The notes below the pieces were generated by a model. That model did no database searches, was not told where the DNA came from, and saw nothing but the letters and a program-made list of their open reading frames with translations. The translations under genes and the position numbers were made by a program. This document shows positions 20,222 through 34,037 of a stretch of 38,141 nt of DNA, piece after piece. Numbering within the stretch: the first letter of the stretch is position 1; every line of letters begins with the position of its first letter. This DNA is from Bigelowiella natans CCMP2755. Its lineage: Eukaryota; Protista; Cercozoa. The stretch is from contig ADNK01000491.1 of NCBI GenBank assembly GCA_000320545.1, positions 1 to 38,141 on the forward strand. The letters are read 5' to 3'.

Positions 20222-21440
20222 ATGATGCAGCGATTCTTGAATAGCACAGCTATCCACGTGTTAACGTTTTGCTGTCTTCTTCTCTTCCTCCTCGCGGCGA
20301 ACGTCATCACGGTGAGGAGATTATCATTTCTTGGTATTAGTCTCCATGCAGCAGCTCCCAGTCATGTCATCAGTGCTCGGGGGATGAATCAACGGACACG
20401 TGGAAGAGAGAACTCCCAGTGGTCTATGTGTGGATCTCGTTTGCAACATTCCAGCACCAATAGGTGGGCGCAAGGGCGGTCCCTGCAACAGCAGCAGCAG
20501 CAGCCGACGCCGCCGCGGCGAATCCCCATGTCTAGAATCACAGTGCGTTGCAAGGAACAGTCTCCCTCATCCTCATCATTCGATGGAAGCAACAGCATTT
20601 CAGAAGAATATAAGACCCTGGTCGAGGCCATGGAGGAATGTGAGAGCTACGTTCGCCGGAGGGAGTCATCGGGCAATCTTCCTCCCGTTCCTGCAATCCA
20701 CAATGCGGCTCTGATGAAAATGATGCTGGGGGGTATAAAGGAGGCAGAAACAGATCTTAGGCGGGCAATTGATGAGGAACTTAAGCAAAATTTCGGAAAA
20801 GACACGGTAAAGCATACTGTCATATCTCATTTATTTGATTGATCCACCATCACAAACAACTTCATGTAATATTCCACTGTCAGCCCTGCCTGGCGGTCGC
20901 AATGCGGTCTCTCGCTGTCACGCTCTCGCAGAATCCAGATCGGGGCGAAGAATATAGAAATGCACTCGAACAGGTGAGAAAGCTTTTTACCAACACATAA
21001 AAGGGCTAACGATGACCCTGGGACGACGGCTGTGTCATCATCATCGAAAATAATTATAAAAGCCCTTTTATAATATCTACTCAGGCACAAGCAATATGGG
21101 GTCGGCTGTATGGCTCGGATGAAAGTCGTAGACTAGAGTTCAAAATGGCAACCCAGCAAGCTCGTAAAACTACGAAGCGTCTTCATATGACGGTCTGTTT
21201 GAGTCGAGTAGTTTACACGTATAACGACGACTAGACGCACAACATTGAGAACGCCACAGCAGCAGGCTTCTCGAATACTGATGGTGGTAGTAGTAGTAGT
21301 GGTAATAGTACTCAGTTTCTCTCTACACATTGTTTCAGGAAGAGTTGAAGAAGTTGGAACTAGAAAACAATCCAGAGTTGCAGAATCCGGTCAATCTACC
21401 CGCGCAAAGATTGATAATAATAGTGTTATAATGATGGTTT

Positions 21441-25438: not shown

Positions 25439-28400
25439 CTACTGGTGCTGGTTCTCTTCCCGTCCGTCCACGCTACGAGCAGCCTTCTTTCTAACATTGA
25501 TCTCATTGATCGCTCCTGTCAAATTCACCGCTCCAGCAGACTTTCGATGACCACCTCCTGGGCCGCCGCCTCCTCCGCCTCCTCCTCCTTTTCGCATGAT
25601 GTTTCGAAGAGGAGGCTGGAACTTTTTTAATGGGCTTTGGTGGTGGGAATGATGGTGATGCATGTGCTGGCGAGAATGTGGCGAATAATGTTTCGGAGAA
25701 GAGCGACGGGGATGGTGGTGATGATGATGAAGATGCTGGTGATGAAGGTGCCCATGATAGTTCTGCAGCGGCGGTTGAGCTCCTCGAGACAACGCTATAT
25801 GATTGGCATTAAAGCTTAGAGGCTTGGAATTACCAGAAGACATACTTCTTGAGGCTCTCGTTCGATGCTGTTGTTTCATATCGTGCAGAGGAGCAGCAGC
25901 AGCAGGAGCTGGAGGAAGGGGGTGATATATCTGACTGAATCCTGTGGCGGCTGAAGAGTGGTGCCCGTTGTTTTCATTATTCGATATTGTGTGATGTTGG
26001 AGAGGAGGGTTGAAGCCTATTATGGTGGGGGCACCACCCCCACCGAGGTACTGACTATGGTGATTGTGGCCCCAACTATGAGGGTGGTGTTGTCTTGGAA
26101 CCGACGACCTTTCAGGGGAGGAGTTGTGGTGGCTGTCTATCCTGAATGCTGTTCCATGATGATAAGGATAGTGCGGCGTCACCGGTTGCTGCTGCTGCTG
26201 TTGCACGTGCGAGTTTCGTCCTGGATAGCGCAGTTGTGGCGGTCCAGGGACCCACACCGCCCCTGCGCCTCCCTCCCCCCCTCTGTTGGGACTTTCCACG
26301 TGAAAAGGAGAGAACTCTTGAGCCGTCGAGTTGCTGCTTCGACGGATAGGGCTCATGCCTTGTAACGAGCTCGTTCTGAGCGGACTACCAATAGCAGGAC
26401 TTCCCCGTGGAAGCGATGACGATGACCTGCCCCAGAGACCACTCCCTCCTCCAGGAGACATCCCACGGCCGTGCGAACCAGAGGAGAATAAACCGCCCCC
26501 TCCTCCTCCTCCTCCTCCCCCTCCTAGGTGGACAGGGCTTCCTCTTGCCAGCATGGGTGTGCTAGCGAGGGTTAGAGAGTGCGAATGAGCGGTTTCCCGT
26601 AAGACAGGAGTGTGGTTCATAGGGGTATGGTCCGCCATTTCCTTGGAGAAACTCATGTCGGAAGAAGGAGTTTTTATCATGATCGCCTTACTTCTAGGGT
26701 GATGCCGACTAGGACTATCATAAAGCTTGTTGTCAGCTAATCCATGCCCCCACTGTGCTGTATTCCTACTGCTACTGCTGATTCCCGTTTGATGCTGATG
26801 CTGACGCTGACGCTGATGCTGATGCTGCAGCACAGTAGACTGGGGATGAGGAGGATGGTGAAACCCACTCGTGAATGGCTGCCTCAGCTGCACCGGAGCA
26901 GACCTCTCAAAGGTCAGTGTGTGCTGTTCAGGAGGGACATCAAAACCAAGAGTGCGTTTTTCTGGGCTGAAATGGGAGTTTTTCCTTGATGCTGGTGATG
27001 CTGCTGTGGCAGCCATGTTCTCGCCTACAATGAAAGGATGATCTAGAGCTTCCATGGGAGTTGCCCGCTCTTCCGGGTCTAAACGCAGTAGATTGGAAAT
27101 AAACGCTATAAATGTGCCCCTGGATTCCTTTTCCTTTTCCTTTTCCTCCGCGGATAGGCTCGTTCGGTAGGGATACTTGTAAACAAGAGAATCCAGTCGT
27201 GTGTGCTGCGTATAGTAAGTAGTAGAGGTAGTAGTAGTGATAAGGAGGAGGAAGAGGAGGAGGAGGAGGAGGAGGAGGGTATAAGAGGAATAAATGAAGG
27301 ATCAACTCCAACAACGACTTCGACTTCAAATAATTGGTGCAGAGTAAGGCTTATTTAAATTTCTAGTACCTTGAAGTACCGCTTTGGGTAAACAGGTGTT
27401 TTCTTGTTCTCATCGGCGTATCTCGCAATGGATTTTATTCGATACTCATCAATCATTTTGTCGTGGTCAAAAAAAAGAGATGCTTTCTTCGAACGTCGGC
27501 AGAGACGCTGTGGAACGCCGAGCATTTCAACTATCCTGAAAATCTGGTTGAAAGCGCTAACACCGGGAAAAAGGGGGAGTCCAAGGAACAGCTCAGCAGC
27601 CACACATCCTGAGAATACACATCGCCATTATTATTCAACATCTTTTGTATCACGGGGGTTTACTTCGAATCCATAAATTTAAATTCGTGCAGCATTTCAG
27701 AGAGGAAAGGTATAATCTTTAAAAAAGTTAGCGTGGACTTCTGGCTACTACCTATTGACCACATGTCTATTTTCATGTCGTAAGGAAGGCCTAAAAGGAC
27801 TTCCGGTGAGCGGTAAAATCTTGACTGAATATAAGAGTATACGGTGTGGTTTTTATCGCAAGCGGAGCCGAAATCAATAATCTTTATCTTTGCAGAGTTA
27901 AGGGAGGAGAGTAGAATATTTTCAGGCTTCAGGTCGCAGTGAATCACTCCTGCATTAGCCATCACATTCATAGCCCGTAGTATCTGCCTCAAAATTGTGC
28001 GTATTAGATTGCACGAGAGGCCTCGGAAACGATTCTGTTTGATGAGCTCATAGAGGTTGACACTCAGCATTTCAAAGACCAGACAAAGATGGTTCTTGAA
28101 GGAAAAATGGTCGTGTAGTCGCACAATGTTGTTTTCATCATTGGGATCGAATTTTTGGTTCAGCATGTTTAAAATCTTGATTTCTATTATTGCCTGCCGA
28201 TAATACGCCGGCTTATTCTTGATAACCTTGACCGCAACTTTTTTCTTTGTTGCAAGATCTTCAGCCTTCACAACTTGACCAAAAGTTCCCTTCCCGAGCA
28301 TCTCCTCTACTCTAAAACTCCGGAAAGGACCACTTTCGGAGTGAAGAATATCATTCGCGTACATCACTAAATTTGAGTCCGCGTTGTCCCTCCCAGAATT

Positions 28401-28889
28401 AGACACACCCTTGCAGGGTTTTGACAGAGCTCTCCGGGGTCGGACGCTGGGTTTATACTTAAACTTTGGGTTGCACTGGCGGTACAAATTAGCAATCATT
28501 ACTGTTGTAAGCTTTACCAGGAGCTGGGGTTCATGGCTTTTCTTGCGAATATTTGCACCCAATTCGCGATTCAAAAATCTTTTAAAAGGATGAGAAGAAA
28601 TTTCTGTCGACCCTGATTCATTTGATAAGTAAGCTTTAAAGCGTTTTTCCTGAGCCTCTTTAAGCTTCGACTTCAGATGAAGCTGTTTAAATTCTGTGGT
28701 GATACCGCTCCGAGGCGACAGTTCTTCCTTCTTGTCCTCACTTTTTCGCATTTCGCCCTTTGTTATTTTCTTTCGGATGGGAGAATTTTTTTCATTTCTA
28801 TTGATCGGAAGAACATTTTCTTCATCCTTACCTGGATTTCCGGCACCTTCCGTATGCGAGTTGTTGCTGGGAGTAGGACTCAGATCCAT
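25439..28889 (-). CDS. YAK1: YAK1-type DYRK family dual-specificity protein kinase; exons 28889-27752, 27608-27370, 27205-25439
   Basis: Motifs LGKGTFGQV, VAVKVIKNKPAY, HCDLKPEN, DFGSA, the DYRK activation loop YSYIQSRFYRSPE and DMWSIG|CVAAELFLGLPLFPG. The YAK1-specific pre-kinase segment is present (LVKLT...YRQCNPKFKY...PRRALSKP...NSGRDNADSNLV). Subdomain XI LLRLDPEERATPMEALDHPF leads into the 538-aa low-complexity ORF. Both introns are GT-AG and phase-consistent. Confidence 0.93.
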
Positions 28890-29595
28890 CCCCCATAAAC
28901 AGGAAGCGGGAGCACGATGGGTCGCAGGATTTTAAGACAGCTTACAACTGGAATTTTCGAAAGACGAAGAGATTAGGCGAGAAAGTGGGGGAGCAGCGTG
29001 TGGAGTGGTCTCCCCCCTTGATCTTCGGACCACCACGAGCTTAAAAGAGACCGATTCTGTATCTTTTTTTGGTTAAAACTTGATGTATTTGTTGTCGCGA
29101 CATCGAAATAAACCCCAATTCTTAGAGAATGAGTTTGCAATCAAACCTCTCGCGGAACTTGTTGGGAGTCACAGATGCTCCAGAATTTCAAGTGACGACA
29201 ATCTAATTTGATTGCAGCAAGGCTTAAATCCTATTGGAACACCGCATGTCTGCATTCTTCAAGCATGGTGCATCTAAATCTAGGCAGTGCACACATTATT
29301 TTTGAGCGAATACCCCCCCTCCTAAGATGGACAAATGCTTAATAATTTCTATGTGCGACAAGACTTTTCAAGCTTTTCCCCTCTCCAGTTGCCCTATGAT
29401 CACACCCGATTCTCGTTTTTGGTCGACACATGCAAACCAGCCGAGCACTGCTATCGGGAGAAGGGCGAAAGCAGAAGGAAACTGTGTGTCTGCTTGTCTA
29501 TTCGGTCTGTCTCAGTCGGCAAGCGTCCACTTTTTGACGCGCGCCTAAAGCAGTCCGGAGCAGCCCGAAGCACCAACTGATGAGGTCAGGATAAC
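28890..29595. promoter_or_regulatory. Probable bidirectional promoter / 5'UTR region between YAK1 and the DCP2-like gene
   Basis: About 700 bp, free of microsatellites, between divergent starts. Positional inference only. Confidence 0.35.
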
Positions 29596-31773
29596 ATGAT
29601 ACAAAGATCGGGCTCGTATTGTCTTGCATTCGACACGACAGAGGAGGGCCGAAATGTTATCATCCCGCGGAATATCCTACGAGAGAAGAAAATCGCGAAA
29701 ACCATAAAGATCTGTTTCAGCCTCACCGTCATCGCAATTATTTCCCTCATGGTACCCCTCCCCCAGTCCAATTTTGAGATTGTGATCCATGAAGTTTTTT
29801 TTTACCCAATACTAGGGGCTACAATCTCTCGAACCCATCCAATTCTCTCCCCCATCGGCTATTCGGAGTCAAGCCCAGATTCAGCAAAATAACGTGGAAG
29901 ATGTCTACCAATTTGGATCGTGGATGATGAAAGATATGAAGGTATAATATAACCAGTAGGATGATCATTTTTGTGTTAACAATTATAATGTTTTACAGAC
30001 CCTCCAGCAGTTTGACGAAGGGATGAATTGTCGCATCTGTCCATTGAATGTGAGTCGGAGCGAGGAACGAGCAATTGAAGCTACACTCAACGCTCGTCCG
30101 TCGAATCTGGTAAGCCTTTGCAATTTGTTTCCCTATGCTGCACTCTCTCATTCACTCATCACGTCTTCCAGACAGATTATTTTTCCAGTGTTGCCAAGCT
30201 GTTAGCAAATTTCTCCAAATGTGAATTTCACGAATCCCAAAGGTTGACGCGACTAAAAAGACATCCTCCTTGCCTGCGAGTTGATATATTTTCCATTGAG
30301 GATGATGATATGGTACTACTGTGCAGGAAGAGAAGCCCATCAACACCCTCTTGTAGTCTACGCAAAATATTTCCGTGTCTTCGGAAAATGCACTGGACGT
30401 ACCAGGATCGTTGGGCAAATTCGGGTTCGCAGCTGCCTCCTATTGGCTTCGAAACGTGAGTGAGCAAAGCAGCTGTTTATTCCGTCTATCATCTATCTCC
30501 TTTAGTAAATCTACCATTACAGCTGCTGCTGTTGCTTCAACCAAGCCGTAAAAATGACCGCTATTTTTTAGGTTTTGCCAGGAAGCTTTTGTTCGGTATC
30601 TTACTACCTATATGCGATTGAATATGAGTGCATGCGTGCGTGTATGTAAAGCTTCTATCTGAGAAATCTCCCCCTTCTATTTCCTCCTCCTTCTCTTTCA
30701 TCACGTTTCGTATTCCCTCGTTTACTTCTTCCCTTCTCACAATGGTGGTCAGAGTTTCTGCTCTTAAGGTACTAGGAGAGCGGAAATTTGATGCTTTGAA
30801 AGAAAGATTCAAGCAGGTCATGAACAAAACTTTAGTGGAGGATTCTCCCTTCTCCTCCTCCTCCTACTCCTCCTCCTCCTCCTCTTCGTCTTCTCCTACC
30901 CAGCTAGTCATCACACTACACTATTACTTACAACCGCATTATTCTACAAAAGATTAATTTATTCAACTACTCTAATATGATATCTTAGGCTCTTAGGCAG
31001 GCCCCTGTAATCGGAGCGATCTGCATCGATAACGCCACAATGGACGAGGTGCTGATGGTACGTTCATTCGGGGGCTATACTTGGGGGTTTCCTCAGGGCA
31101 AGCTAGAAGTACAAGAGAGGCCAGTGGATGCTGCCGTCAGGGAGGTACCTGGAGAACGAAAAACAGTAGAAAAGAGACGACGATAATGACAAGTTCATCA
31201 TTACTCTTAAATCACTACGCGAGAAAGCATACATCAATAATGCCTTAGGTGATGGAAGAGTGCGGAATCGATATATCCCACGAGCTGAATCCGGAGACAT
31301 ATATCCAGGTGATCATACAAATATATCCATACACTTCTCATCACCAAAATCATGGGTGGAGTCCGTTAAGCGACGGGACAGAATCCTTGTCGTCGAGGAA
31401 TGCACATGATCGATTTTGTCAGAACTATTTACATTTTTGGGAATGAGGAGGAGACTCATGTTTGAAGCGTCCTTGGAAAGAGCTCATCCATCCCGTTGTT
31501 TCACCATAATGTTTGTTCACTGTACCCTTCTCAAGGTTTATAGGAATGGAAGAATCACCCGATTATATCTCGTCCCACTGGCGAAGGTCTGTACGGCAAC
31601 CATGAGGATCACAATGATGATCATAATAAATACATAGCTGTATATGCTGTAATACATATAGCAGTCAATACTGTATCTTTCCTGCTTATCCCATTCATTG
31701 GCTACTTTGTTGAATTCTCATCTACATAGAAGCGGTGGCCATTGCCGGCACAAAAGCCATCATCATCACGGAT

Positions 31774-31812
<39 letters not shown>

Positions 31813-32345
31813 CGCTAGCCATGACTATGAGATTGGCGAAATCAAGTGGCAATCGCTTCGTGCTCTGGCCACCATCACCACCACCACTACCAAAACTGAT
31901 ACGACAACTACTACTACTGCTATGCAGCAGCAGCAGCAGCATGATGACGATGGCAGGGACGTAGGATATGATGCTGATGATGAACTCGTAGTATCACTTA
32001 GCAAATCGTCTATTCAGAGCAGAGCGGCTGCAGCGATGGAAAGTAGAAGAATGCCCTCCTCACCGCCGTTATCGTCTCCAGCAACACTAACGAGAGGAGG
32101 AGGAGGAGGAGGATCAGCAGCAGCAGCAGCAGCATCGTCGTCGTCTACATCTCCTGATGGTGCTGCAGGCTGCAGTGGCGGGGGTGGTGGATTTCAATAT
32201 AGTGGTTCGCTACGTGACACACTACCCCTGTTGATGAAATGGATTCACCTACATGATCAGCGCCATTATCATCCTTCTCTCACGCAGCAGCACAGGGTTA
32301 GTAGTGAAGTCTCAAATTGCATAATGATGGTAGCAGATATATGTT

Positions 32346-32376
<31 letters not shown>

Positions 32377-32743
32377 ACGACATCTTCGGAGTAGTGTGTA
32401 GTAGCAATGCGATTATTGGCCATCATCCCCCCGACTGCAGAGCCAAGTTCTCTTCACTTCCTTCTTCCTTTTCCTCCTCCTCCTCCTCCTCCTGCTACTT
32501 GCTGTTGCTGGTGATGATGTTGCGTGCGATTAGGAGACCCCTTCCAATGGTGTGGAGGAGACAAAGGAAGAGGAGATCGGGGGCCAGAGCCCACACAACG
32601 ACGACGACGGAAACAACAACAATGATCATCATCTTAGTTGGGGAGAGAGAGGAGGGGGACGAGACTACGATGAGAAGGGTGCTCATCGTGAATTTCGGAA
32701 GCGACTCCACCGAATCCTACAAGATTGGCGAAAACGCGAGTAA
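29596..32743 (+). CDS. DCP2: Dcp2-like mRNA decapping Nudix hydrolase with N-terminal hydrophobic leader
   Basis: A complete Nudix box GKLEVQERPVDAAVRE|VMEECGI (GX5EX7REUXEEXGU) is split by intron 31145-31248. It is preceded by Dcp2-type APVIGAICID...EVLMVRSFGGYTWGFPQG and a Box A-like segment (LLANFSKCE...RKIFPCLRKMHWTYQD...LPPIGFETFCQEAF), and followed by RLYLV and EIGEIKW. Exon 1 (29596-29751) ends ICFSLTVIAIISLM. The last exon ends RILQDWRKRE* at 32743. Confidence 0.85.
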
Positions 32744-33009
32744 CAGTGAATGATTTTGTAACATAGGTTTCTTCTTCTTCTTCTTCTTCTTCTTCTTCTT
32801 CCCTACTTCTCCTTCCTATTCTTTATCTTTAGTGAAAGCGGTAGCGTGACACATCCACTAATCACGATTATAGGGAGTTCCAGCGATGTGAAGACTTGAT
32901 GCTTTTCTCCGAGGATACCCCATGTCCCACACGCCGTCGGCACGGAAAAGATTGGAAAGCGAGGTCAATGATTGATCCTGATTATGATGATGATGATGAT
33001 GTATATCGG

Positions 33010-34037
33010 TCAGTGGCGTGAGAAGGGTAACGAGGCAATATCGAGGAGGATGTCAGCGCTAGAGCGATTGTACTCCTCGTTGAGTGTTGGCAATCTGATT
33101 GTTTGATTAAGAAGGAGATATGGAGTAGAGGGAGCGCGTGGACGCAAATGAAAATTTTAATGACTTTTCACGTTTTTCCCACGCACGATCGCACGCAAAG
33201 CAGCAGGCAATAATGCTATACGTAAACATATTTTCACAGGGTTAAGATGCTCATTTCTTCGCTGAATCCACAAAAATGCGATACGGTGAGTTTCACCCTT
33301 AACACATTGCGTGCACGTCATCCATCCCAATACTATTGGTATCCATTCTCTCCTCTCCTCCCCCCCTTCTCACCGTTTAGAAATGGTTGGAGGACGCATT
33401 TGAGAGGGTAGAAAGGATGGAGAGCCCTTTACGCGGCGCGCTTGTCGTCATATCAATTCTCGAGATCTTGAAGAAAGCGGATGATGATGATATATTCTCT
33501 GATTGGTAGGCCCACCAATCACAGCAATTCCCCCTTAATTTCGGTAGGATACCTGCATCACGTTCCATGCATGCTCGGTCATGGACGTGACCTTTGGTGA
33601 AACGTCCAATGATGGTGTCGTGTCCTTGCAGGTACATGGGATTACTAGACGATGATTTCAGATCCTATTGTATGCACTTGATCGATGCGTTAAACGTCCA
33701 ACGGATGGTAAAACAAGCTTTAGCGTAGTACGTGTAAATAGATAGTAAATGCAAAGCTAGCCAATTACTCTACACTTGTTTTAAGCTTAGATTCTGATTT
33801 CTGTGGTGATTGGCAGATATAGTTCACACCATTATGTAACACGTAGAAGTTGCTAGGATAGTGCAGGTGGTTGTTGTGGTCATGCTAACGATTATCTGGG
33901 CTTGGTGCTGTGATTATTTGTAGTTCTTTTTAGCGTACATCCATGCGACAGTTGTTATTGAATGTAAAGATGATAATTGAATATATATTGTTTATTTGGT
34001 AACGACGCATGTCTAGACGTATTTATTCCAGATAATT

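Follow-up and report, generated by a model that had tools for sequence, protein, structure and literature searches.

Several nucleus-encoded housekeeping proteins of chlorarachniophytes reach the nucleomorph or the surrounding periplastid compartment (PPC). POLD, POLH, RFC1 and RPA1 were placed there by green fluorescent protein (GFP) fusion, and Nup98, Rae1 and CIA factors by prediction (PMC5635652, PMC6411479, PMC6105332). Expression of nucleomorph genes is reported to exceed that of nuclear genes about 19-fold, and antisense RNA to be plentiful (PMC6009652). The closest known counterpart of the protein studied here is Dcp2 (NUDT20), represented by S. pombe Dcp2 (PDB 5j3t, 5n2v), in which W43 and D47 bind 7-methylguanosine (m7G; PMC6900585). 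We describe a gene on the forward strand of a Bigelowiella natans CCMP2755 contig (ADNK01000491.1; the window is its whole analysed stretch of 38,141 nucleotides) whose first in-frame ATG lies at 29596 and which encodes a real, expressed Dcp2 variant with a secretory-type leader, a combination found in two genera. From its sequence features, import into the periplastid compartment is likely.

The literature searched, with few subscription journals in it, named no mRNA-decapping enzyme among chlorarachniophyte periplastid imports; dcp2 was absent from the papers listed (40 of 346) on nucleomorphs or chlorarachniophytes, nucleomorphs and decapping came together in one unrelated paper, and no paper combined Dcp2, signal peptide and secondary plastid. 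Term searches likewise met no word of decapping in PMC6461891, PMC12730881 (its supplement in part), PMC4494063 and PMC6559170. The PPC list of Curtis et al. 2012 or the full Table S1 of PMC5635652 may already predict this import.

The Dcp2 gene and its product

Splice evidence was taken from the contigs of public runs mapped to the locus. Six runs (X1, X2, X3, X5, X15 and X17, with six study codes) were treated as RNA-type sets, their RNA status being a guess and not on record; the contigs carry spliced joins and are therefore transcript-derived. All six sets agree on ten introns between 29752 and 31729, with the leader, Box A and Nudix exons spliced together, and in three of them (X1, X5, X15) a single contig runs from exon 1, which encodes the hydrophobic segment, through the Nudix exon. 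The three leader exons (exons 1-3 in the table below) are open, in frame and flanked by GT..AG. The main contigs begin at 29394-29456, 5' of the ATG at 29596; no other in-frame Met lies between this ATG and the preceding stop codon at 29581-29583. Such contigs cannot reveal the true transcription start nor exclude shorter transcripts. Two further runs inform neither expression nor start site, X21 (raw reads) having 9 reads at the locus and X20 being unspliced. Three database proteins (P0001-P0003, one of them an MMETSP open reading frame (ORF) labelled complete) also have this leader ahead of a Nudix domain, differing from the window protein there by one or two substitutions. Downstream, the RNA joins continue from exon 11 to exons 12 and 13 and the gene reaches at least 33021. 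Twelve introns are RNA-supported and no stop codon interrupts the 13 exons. The product has 622 amino acids (aa) if the stop at 33021 is used, with exon 13 read straight on, or 710 aa if the donor after 33017 and the three predicted exons are used; the two of these three exons that were scanned gave no Pfam match.

Alignments and a structure model identify the gene product as a divergent Dcp2-family enzyme. Its aa 159-314 align to S. pombe Dcp2 24-178 (phmmer against PDB sequences, E 4.8e-21), and yeast or human Dcp2 chains were the 10 best of 20 PDB sequence matches. A structure model built with 15 sequences has a mean predicted local distance difference test score (pLDDT) of 68.3, with 80-96 over most of aa 171-320 and low values in the leader; Foldseek with this model returned Dcp2 structures as top matches (best E 1.6e-14). 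The order of a divergent Box A-like region and the Nudix domain, and the fold, are as in S. pombe Dcp2. The Nudix domain scored 44.2 bits with Pfam NUDIX (cut-off 21.1), and G264, E270, R278, E279, E282, E283 and G285 of the Nudix box are invariant across the 15 sequences. W178 and D182 are the aligned equivalents of S. pombe W43 and D47 (5j3t_B alignment), and the equivalents of K129 and E143/E146/E147 are also kept. Box A matched Pfam DCP2 with 22.6 bits (E 1.3e-4), below the cut-off of 28 and over profile positions 21-81 only, and the match misses the first helix; the region is helical in the structure model. Weak Pfam matches to Sar8_2, Cytadhesin_P30 and T7_gp14 lay far below cut-off and were rejected.

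Unlike S. pombe Dcp2, the window protein has a leader of about 130 residues including a hydrophobic segment, low-complexity inserts inside the Nudix domain and a C-terminal extension with no Pfam match. Its first helix is degenerate, and other residues stand at the positions of F44, Y92/K93, R190/K191 and Y220; in Dcp2 the contact with Dcp1 is presumably made by the first helix and F44. The cap-sandwiching loop reads D-Y before the conserved Glu, the R and K of R-K-E-I being replaced and the Glu aligned. No aromatic residue is aligned at Y220, the first-base aromatic, and the Tyr is missing there in a control Dcp2 (P0007) too. The region from R190/K191 to Y220 borders low-complexity inserts, and the alignment there is therefore less sure.

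A preliminary description of this DNA had joined the three leader exons to the Nudix exons and called the Nudix box intact, and both points agree with our data. It had also regarded Box A as intact, where we find it divergent, and had ended the gene at 31306, which the RNA joins to exons 12 and 13 overrun.

The leader and its Amorphochlora counterpart

The most hydrophobic 15-mer of the whole protein lies at aa 39-53 (Kyte-Doolittle hydropathy (KD) 2.41) within a predicted helix (aa 25-54), with five basic residues just before it and none just after. For leaders of this kind a charge rule has reportedly been set out by Hirakawa et al. in 2009 and 2010. The segment behind the hydrophobic stretch (aa 55-94) holds 3 K/R and 4 D/E, a net charge of -1 over 40 aa, and -2 over 77 aa. 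The leader exons encode the peptides quoted in the preliminary description, a basic stretch plus hydrophobic helix and a weakly charged Q/S/P-rich segment. Among the criteria of Curtis et al. for PPC proteins are a large number of introns and a net charge of -1 in the transit peptide (quoted in PMC5115734); the charge of aa 55-94 and the 12 RNA-supported introns fit these two. A hydrophobic stretch of equal strength occurs in 31 of 139 ATG-started ORFs of the repeat-rich window and is by itself common there, but the RNA linkage and the matching Amorphochlora leader described below raise it above chance. An Atlas query with aa 1-135 returned no usable match.

Two sequence differences lie in or near the hydrophobic segment: Thr36Ile beside it in P0001-P0003, and at position 29740 an A>G change (a conservative Ile-to-Val) in one low-depth unspliced X20 contig. 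Elsewhere in the window, the ORF 20222-20842 (+) has a signal-like hydrophobic start and then an Arg/Ser-rich segment with 9 K/R and 1 D/E (+8) in 60 aa; it has no Pfam match, and the composition of its N-terminus makes a plastid-targeted product likely.

A search with aa 1-227 against 1.84 billion representatives gave three matches: the protein's own cluster, P0005, which we rejected as an unrelated repeat protein, and P0006. The latter is GAB5363183.1 from Amorphochlora amoebiformis (AAMO2058_000861500; hypothetical protein, partial), the only true relative reached by this query of leader plus Box A; Amorphochlora is also the transformable species (PMC5635652). In their enzyme parts the two proteins are 41% identical (195 aa compared), and both genera retain the Nudix-box residues and the W/D cap residues. 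Basic residues open GAB5363183.1, and its aa 9-23 form a hydrophobic 15-mer (KD 2.27). Its Box A Trp is residue 159, compared with 178 in the window protein and 38-68 in seven control Dcp2s. These controls, from 5 clusters, have no 15-mer above 0.97 KD within their first 70 residues. GAB5363183.1 carries about 85-115 extra residues and has a basic and hydrophobic start, and none of the seven other Dcp2s tested is alike. The two leaders are weakly similar, with a score reached by 202 of 5000 shuffles, and have an F-[GA]-S-W motif at the exon 2 end in common. In a tree of 15 of 80 loci, picked as non-redundant with long open frames, the two proteins form a 100/99 clade on a long stem, the window protein having a very long branch. 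A signal-like leader in this Dcp2 lineage is thus common to two proteins that are about 60% diverged.

The Amorphochlora protein also shows the same loss of the Y-K pair (Y92/K93 of S. pombe). Unlike in the window protein, its signal lies at the very N-terminus, its second segment is net positive and it has no poly-Ser insert; its Box A scores 42.1 bits, above the Pfam cut-off, and a Tyr is found near the Y220 position. Metagenome contigs gave 286 pattern matches and viral contigs 70, and none of these loci resembled the leader-bearing pair. On a metagenome contig of 277 kb lies a Dcp2-like gene (L033:1438-2289) that has a Box A but no introns and is very divergent, possibly a giant-virus copy.

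For the origin of the pair, nine tree sequences were taken as green-algal-like by their motifs, which is our assumption. Joining the pair with them costs 2.35 log-likelihood units (p value of the approximately unbiased test, p-AU, 0.342; L033 and L012 were left out of this test). Of the phylogeny proposed beforehand to separate a green-algal from a host origin, the clade of the pair stands, and a grouping with the presumed green-algal-like sequences is neither found nor rejected.

Proposed import and alternative explanations

For B. natans and L. oceanica, the list of annotated nucleomorph genes (supplement file 1 of PMC4035089) contains nothing under dcp, decap, xrn or exonuclease, with the controls rpb1 and prp8 both found; more than 100 ORFans per nucleomorph genome are unannotated and could hide a dcp2. 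At the level of annotation this agrees with the earlier expectation that the nucleomorph has no dcp2. In Table S1 of PMC5635652 (B. natans; rows listed to row 6178, of about 22,000 genes), at least 35 of the rows listed concern RNA degradation and two of them, RRP6 and a CAF40-like protein, are predicted to be nucleomorph-targeted, so that import is predicted for further decay factors as well; for a CCR4-like model the prediction is plastid targeting. Like the described periplastid imports, the window protein is of a normally cytosolic or nuclear housekeeping type with a putative bipartite leader, and its gene is missing from the nucleomorph list. Unlike for POLD, POLH, RFC1 and RPA1, its location is predicted from sequence.

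We regard it as probable that the enzyme, by means of a signal plus transit-like leader, reaches the periplastid compartment or nucleomorph and serves there in Mg-dependent cap hydrolysis and housekeeping turnover of nucleomorph RNA. The basic-then-hydrophobic segment would enter the secretory pathway and, by the positive-inside rule, leave the enzyme facing the lumen. The near-neutral second segment would then carry the enzyme across the second plastid membrane and not the inner two, and the leader would be removed after import. The Nudix glutamates would bind Mg and hydrolyse a cap held by W178 and D182, and the imported Dcp2 would supply a step absent from the annotated nucleomorph gene list. 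Its job would be bulk housekeeping turnover of abundant nucleomorph transcripts and not gene-specific control; constitutive expression throughout the day is reported for 283 of 285 nucleomorph genes (PMC5635652), which fits housekeeping turnover better. The preliminary description had seen in the gene a means of host control over endosymbiont mRNA turnover, which is conjecture. Its proposal of import agrees with the transcribed leader, the leader-bearing Amorphochlora relative, the nucleomorph list and the net charge of -1, and disagrees with the net positive Amorphochlora segment. In a further-reaching scheme, chlorarachniophytes would have in common a dedicated Dcp2, encoded by the host, whose cap pocket has been rebuilt and whose C-terminal domain is new. 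Acting in the endosymbiont cytoplasm independently of Dcp1, it would set the half-life of all nucleomorph mRNAs and serve as one host post-transcriptional lever over a nucleus without transcriptional regulation; this scheme seems doubtful.

Several points weigh against periplastid import. Half of the cap pocket is altered, as the changes at R190/K191, Y92/K93 and Y220 show. The hydrophobic segment begins late, at aa 39, and could therefore be an uncleaved anchor; in-frame Met residues at 89, 90, 93 and 103 could give a leaderless form. The Amorphochlora segment behind the hydrophobic stretch has 7 K/R and 3 D/E in 35 aa, a net charge of +4, and over 60 aa these counts are 11 and 6, by which it appears closer to a stromal leader, and how PPC and plastid proteins are distinguished is described as unclear (PMC3542566). 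Among the Table S1 rows listed, import is predicted for none of the 5 XRN and 2 eIF4E rows, such short models often being without N-termini, and the one DCP2 row, e_gw1.153.3.1 (711 bp), is labelled 'no-signal', a label that is weak because short XRN fragments bear it too. This model fits the window locus only if the Box A exon is skipped; neither it nor fgenesh1_pg.1_537 can be assigned to this or another locus by length or neighbours.

A sole cellular DCP2 might serve both compartments, with the start at ATG 29596 giving an imported form and a start at Met89-103 a cytosolic one. Both proteins have in-frame Met between the hydrophobic segment and Box A (the four named above; 58 in P0006), two upstream ORFs precede the first ATG, chlorarachniophyte hisRS and glyRS are reported to be dually targeted through alternative initiation (PMC4494062), and word-index searches recovered no second DCP2, returning the protein's own cluster, the Amorphochlora protein and one leaderless Dcp2. 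These searches passed only 1 of 1402 and 3 of 3968 candidates, however; they missed almost all ordinary Dcp2s and therefore cannot show the absence of a second DCP2. The very long branch and the loss of motifs common to aligned Dcp2s are also unlike a main cytosolic copy, and the 711 bp homology-type model fits the locus only by exon skipping, so we consider this arrangement unlikely. Quite unlikely, too, is a plastid leader that takes a repurposed Nudix hydrolase to RNA 5' ends or nucleotides in the stroma: the net positive Amorphochlora segment, the changed R190/K191 and Y220 positions and the plastid-targeted CCR4-like model would suit it, but the window segment is neutral to acidic when set against the Arg-rich leader at 20222, and the m7G-reading W43 and D47 equivalents are kept in both genera. 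Plastid mRNAs are not known to carry an m7G cap, which also counts against it.

That the hydrophobic segment stays uncleaved as an anchor and keeps a host decapping enzyme on the cytosolic side of the endoplasmic reticulum or the outer plastid membrane is very unlikely in our view, even though it starts 38 residues in and is predicted as part of one long helix. The five basic residues before it and none after it favour a luminal enzyme by the general orientation rule, and the Amorphochlora segment at aa 9-23 has the classical signal-peptide position. Least probable is that the protein is a Dcp2 paralogue of the secretory pathway, or one that has decayed catalytically, and takes no part in mRNA decapping. 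The Box A score below the Pfam cut-off, the long low-complexity inserts that split the Nudix domain and an intron-retaining form without that domain speak for this reading, but the Nudix-box and W/D cap residues are all kept in two genera only 41% identical, and 13 exons are free of stops.

Features of the locus and their meaning

Features of the Dcp2 gene in the window
Feature	Position	Strand	Evidence
5' untranslated region as far as contigs reach; two out-of-frame upstream ORFs	29394..29595	+	contig starts, ATG scan
Exon 1, aa 1-52: 28-residue N-terminal stretch, basic stretch, hydrophobic segment	29596..29751	+	RNA join; predicted helix 25-54
Basic stretch, aa 29-38	29680-29709	+	within exon 1
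Hydrophobic segment, aa 39-52	29710-29751	+	within exon 1
Exon 2, aa 53-94: near-neutral Q/S/P-rich transit-like segment, F-[GA]-S-W motif at end	29816..29941	+	low pLDDT 56-83
Exon 3, aa 95-131: remainder of N-terminal extension	29999..30109	+	open frame, RNA joins
Exon 4, aa 132-154: helix at place of first Box A helix, degenerate motif	30172..30242	+	RNA; unmatched by Pfam DCP2 profile
Exon 5, aa 155-197: Box A core, W178 (30394-30396) and D182	30327..30455	+	alignment to 5j3t_B
Exon 6 (24 nt), Box A; next intron at times retained	30572..30595	+	RNA contigs
Exon 7, Box A end and linker	30753..30816	+	RNA contigs
Exon 8, aa 228-279: Nudix start, first part of Nudix box (G264, K265, E270, R278, E279)	30989..31144	+	Pfam NUDIX E 2.8e-07; invariant columns
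Exon 9, aa 280-299: remaining Nudix box (E282, E283, G285)	31249..31308	+	RNA, alignment
Exon 10, Nudix strand	31536..31586	+	RNA, structure model
Exon 11: poly-Ser insert, R-K-E-I-aligned loop, long low-complexity insert, last Nudix helix	31730..32296	+	RNA, alignment
Exon 12, in-frame C-terminal extension	32534..32739	+	RNA-type contigs X3, X5, X15, X17
Exon 13, acceptor RNA-supported; straight reading stops at 33021	32874..33021	+	RNA
Three predicted in-frame GT-AG exons 33240-33285, 33381-33505, 33632-33728	33240..33728	+	prediction only, beyond the mapped reads

The two upstream ORFs lie at 29430-29537 (ATG 29430, 35 aa) and 29580-29594 (ATG 29580, 4 aa), the latter with its stop just before the main ATG. 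Intron 6 (30596-30752) is retained in the database protein P0004 (227 aa, no Nudix domain), and an X2 contig retaining it (30572-30781) has a depth of 13.4 compared with about 43 for spliced contigs. P0001-P0003 end at 445-465 aa within G/A/S repeats (window 32090-32200), before the last Nudix helix; these ends are likely assembly breaks, a strain difference being not excluded. Their poly-Ser run is also shorter than that of the window protein.

Head to head with the Dcp2 gene lies a protein kinase gene (25439-28931, -; Pfam Pkinase E 7.9e-43), which we take to be YAK1/DYRK-like. Its contigs reach 29005 and those of the Dcp2 gene start near 29400; the gap of about 400 nt is likely a shared promoter.

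A Dcp2 routed via the secretory pathway would be unusual, while it is well established that housekeeping proteins are imported into the periplastid compartment. Nucleomorph genes are reported as highly expressed and nearly unregulated over the day, and their annotated list has no decapping or 5' decay gene. The B. natans gene and its Amorphochlora relative provide a concrete candidate for this turnover.
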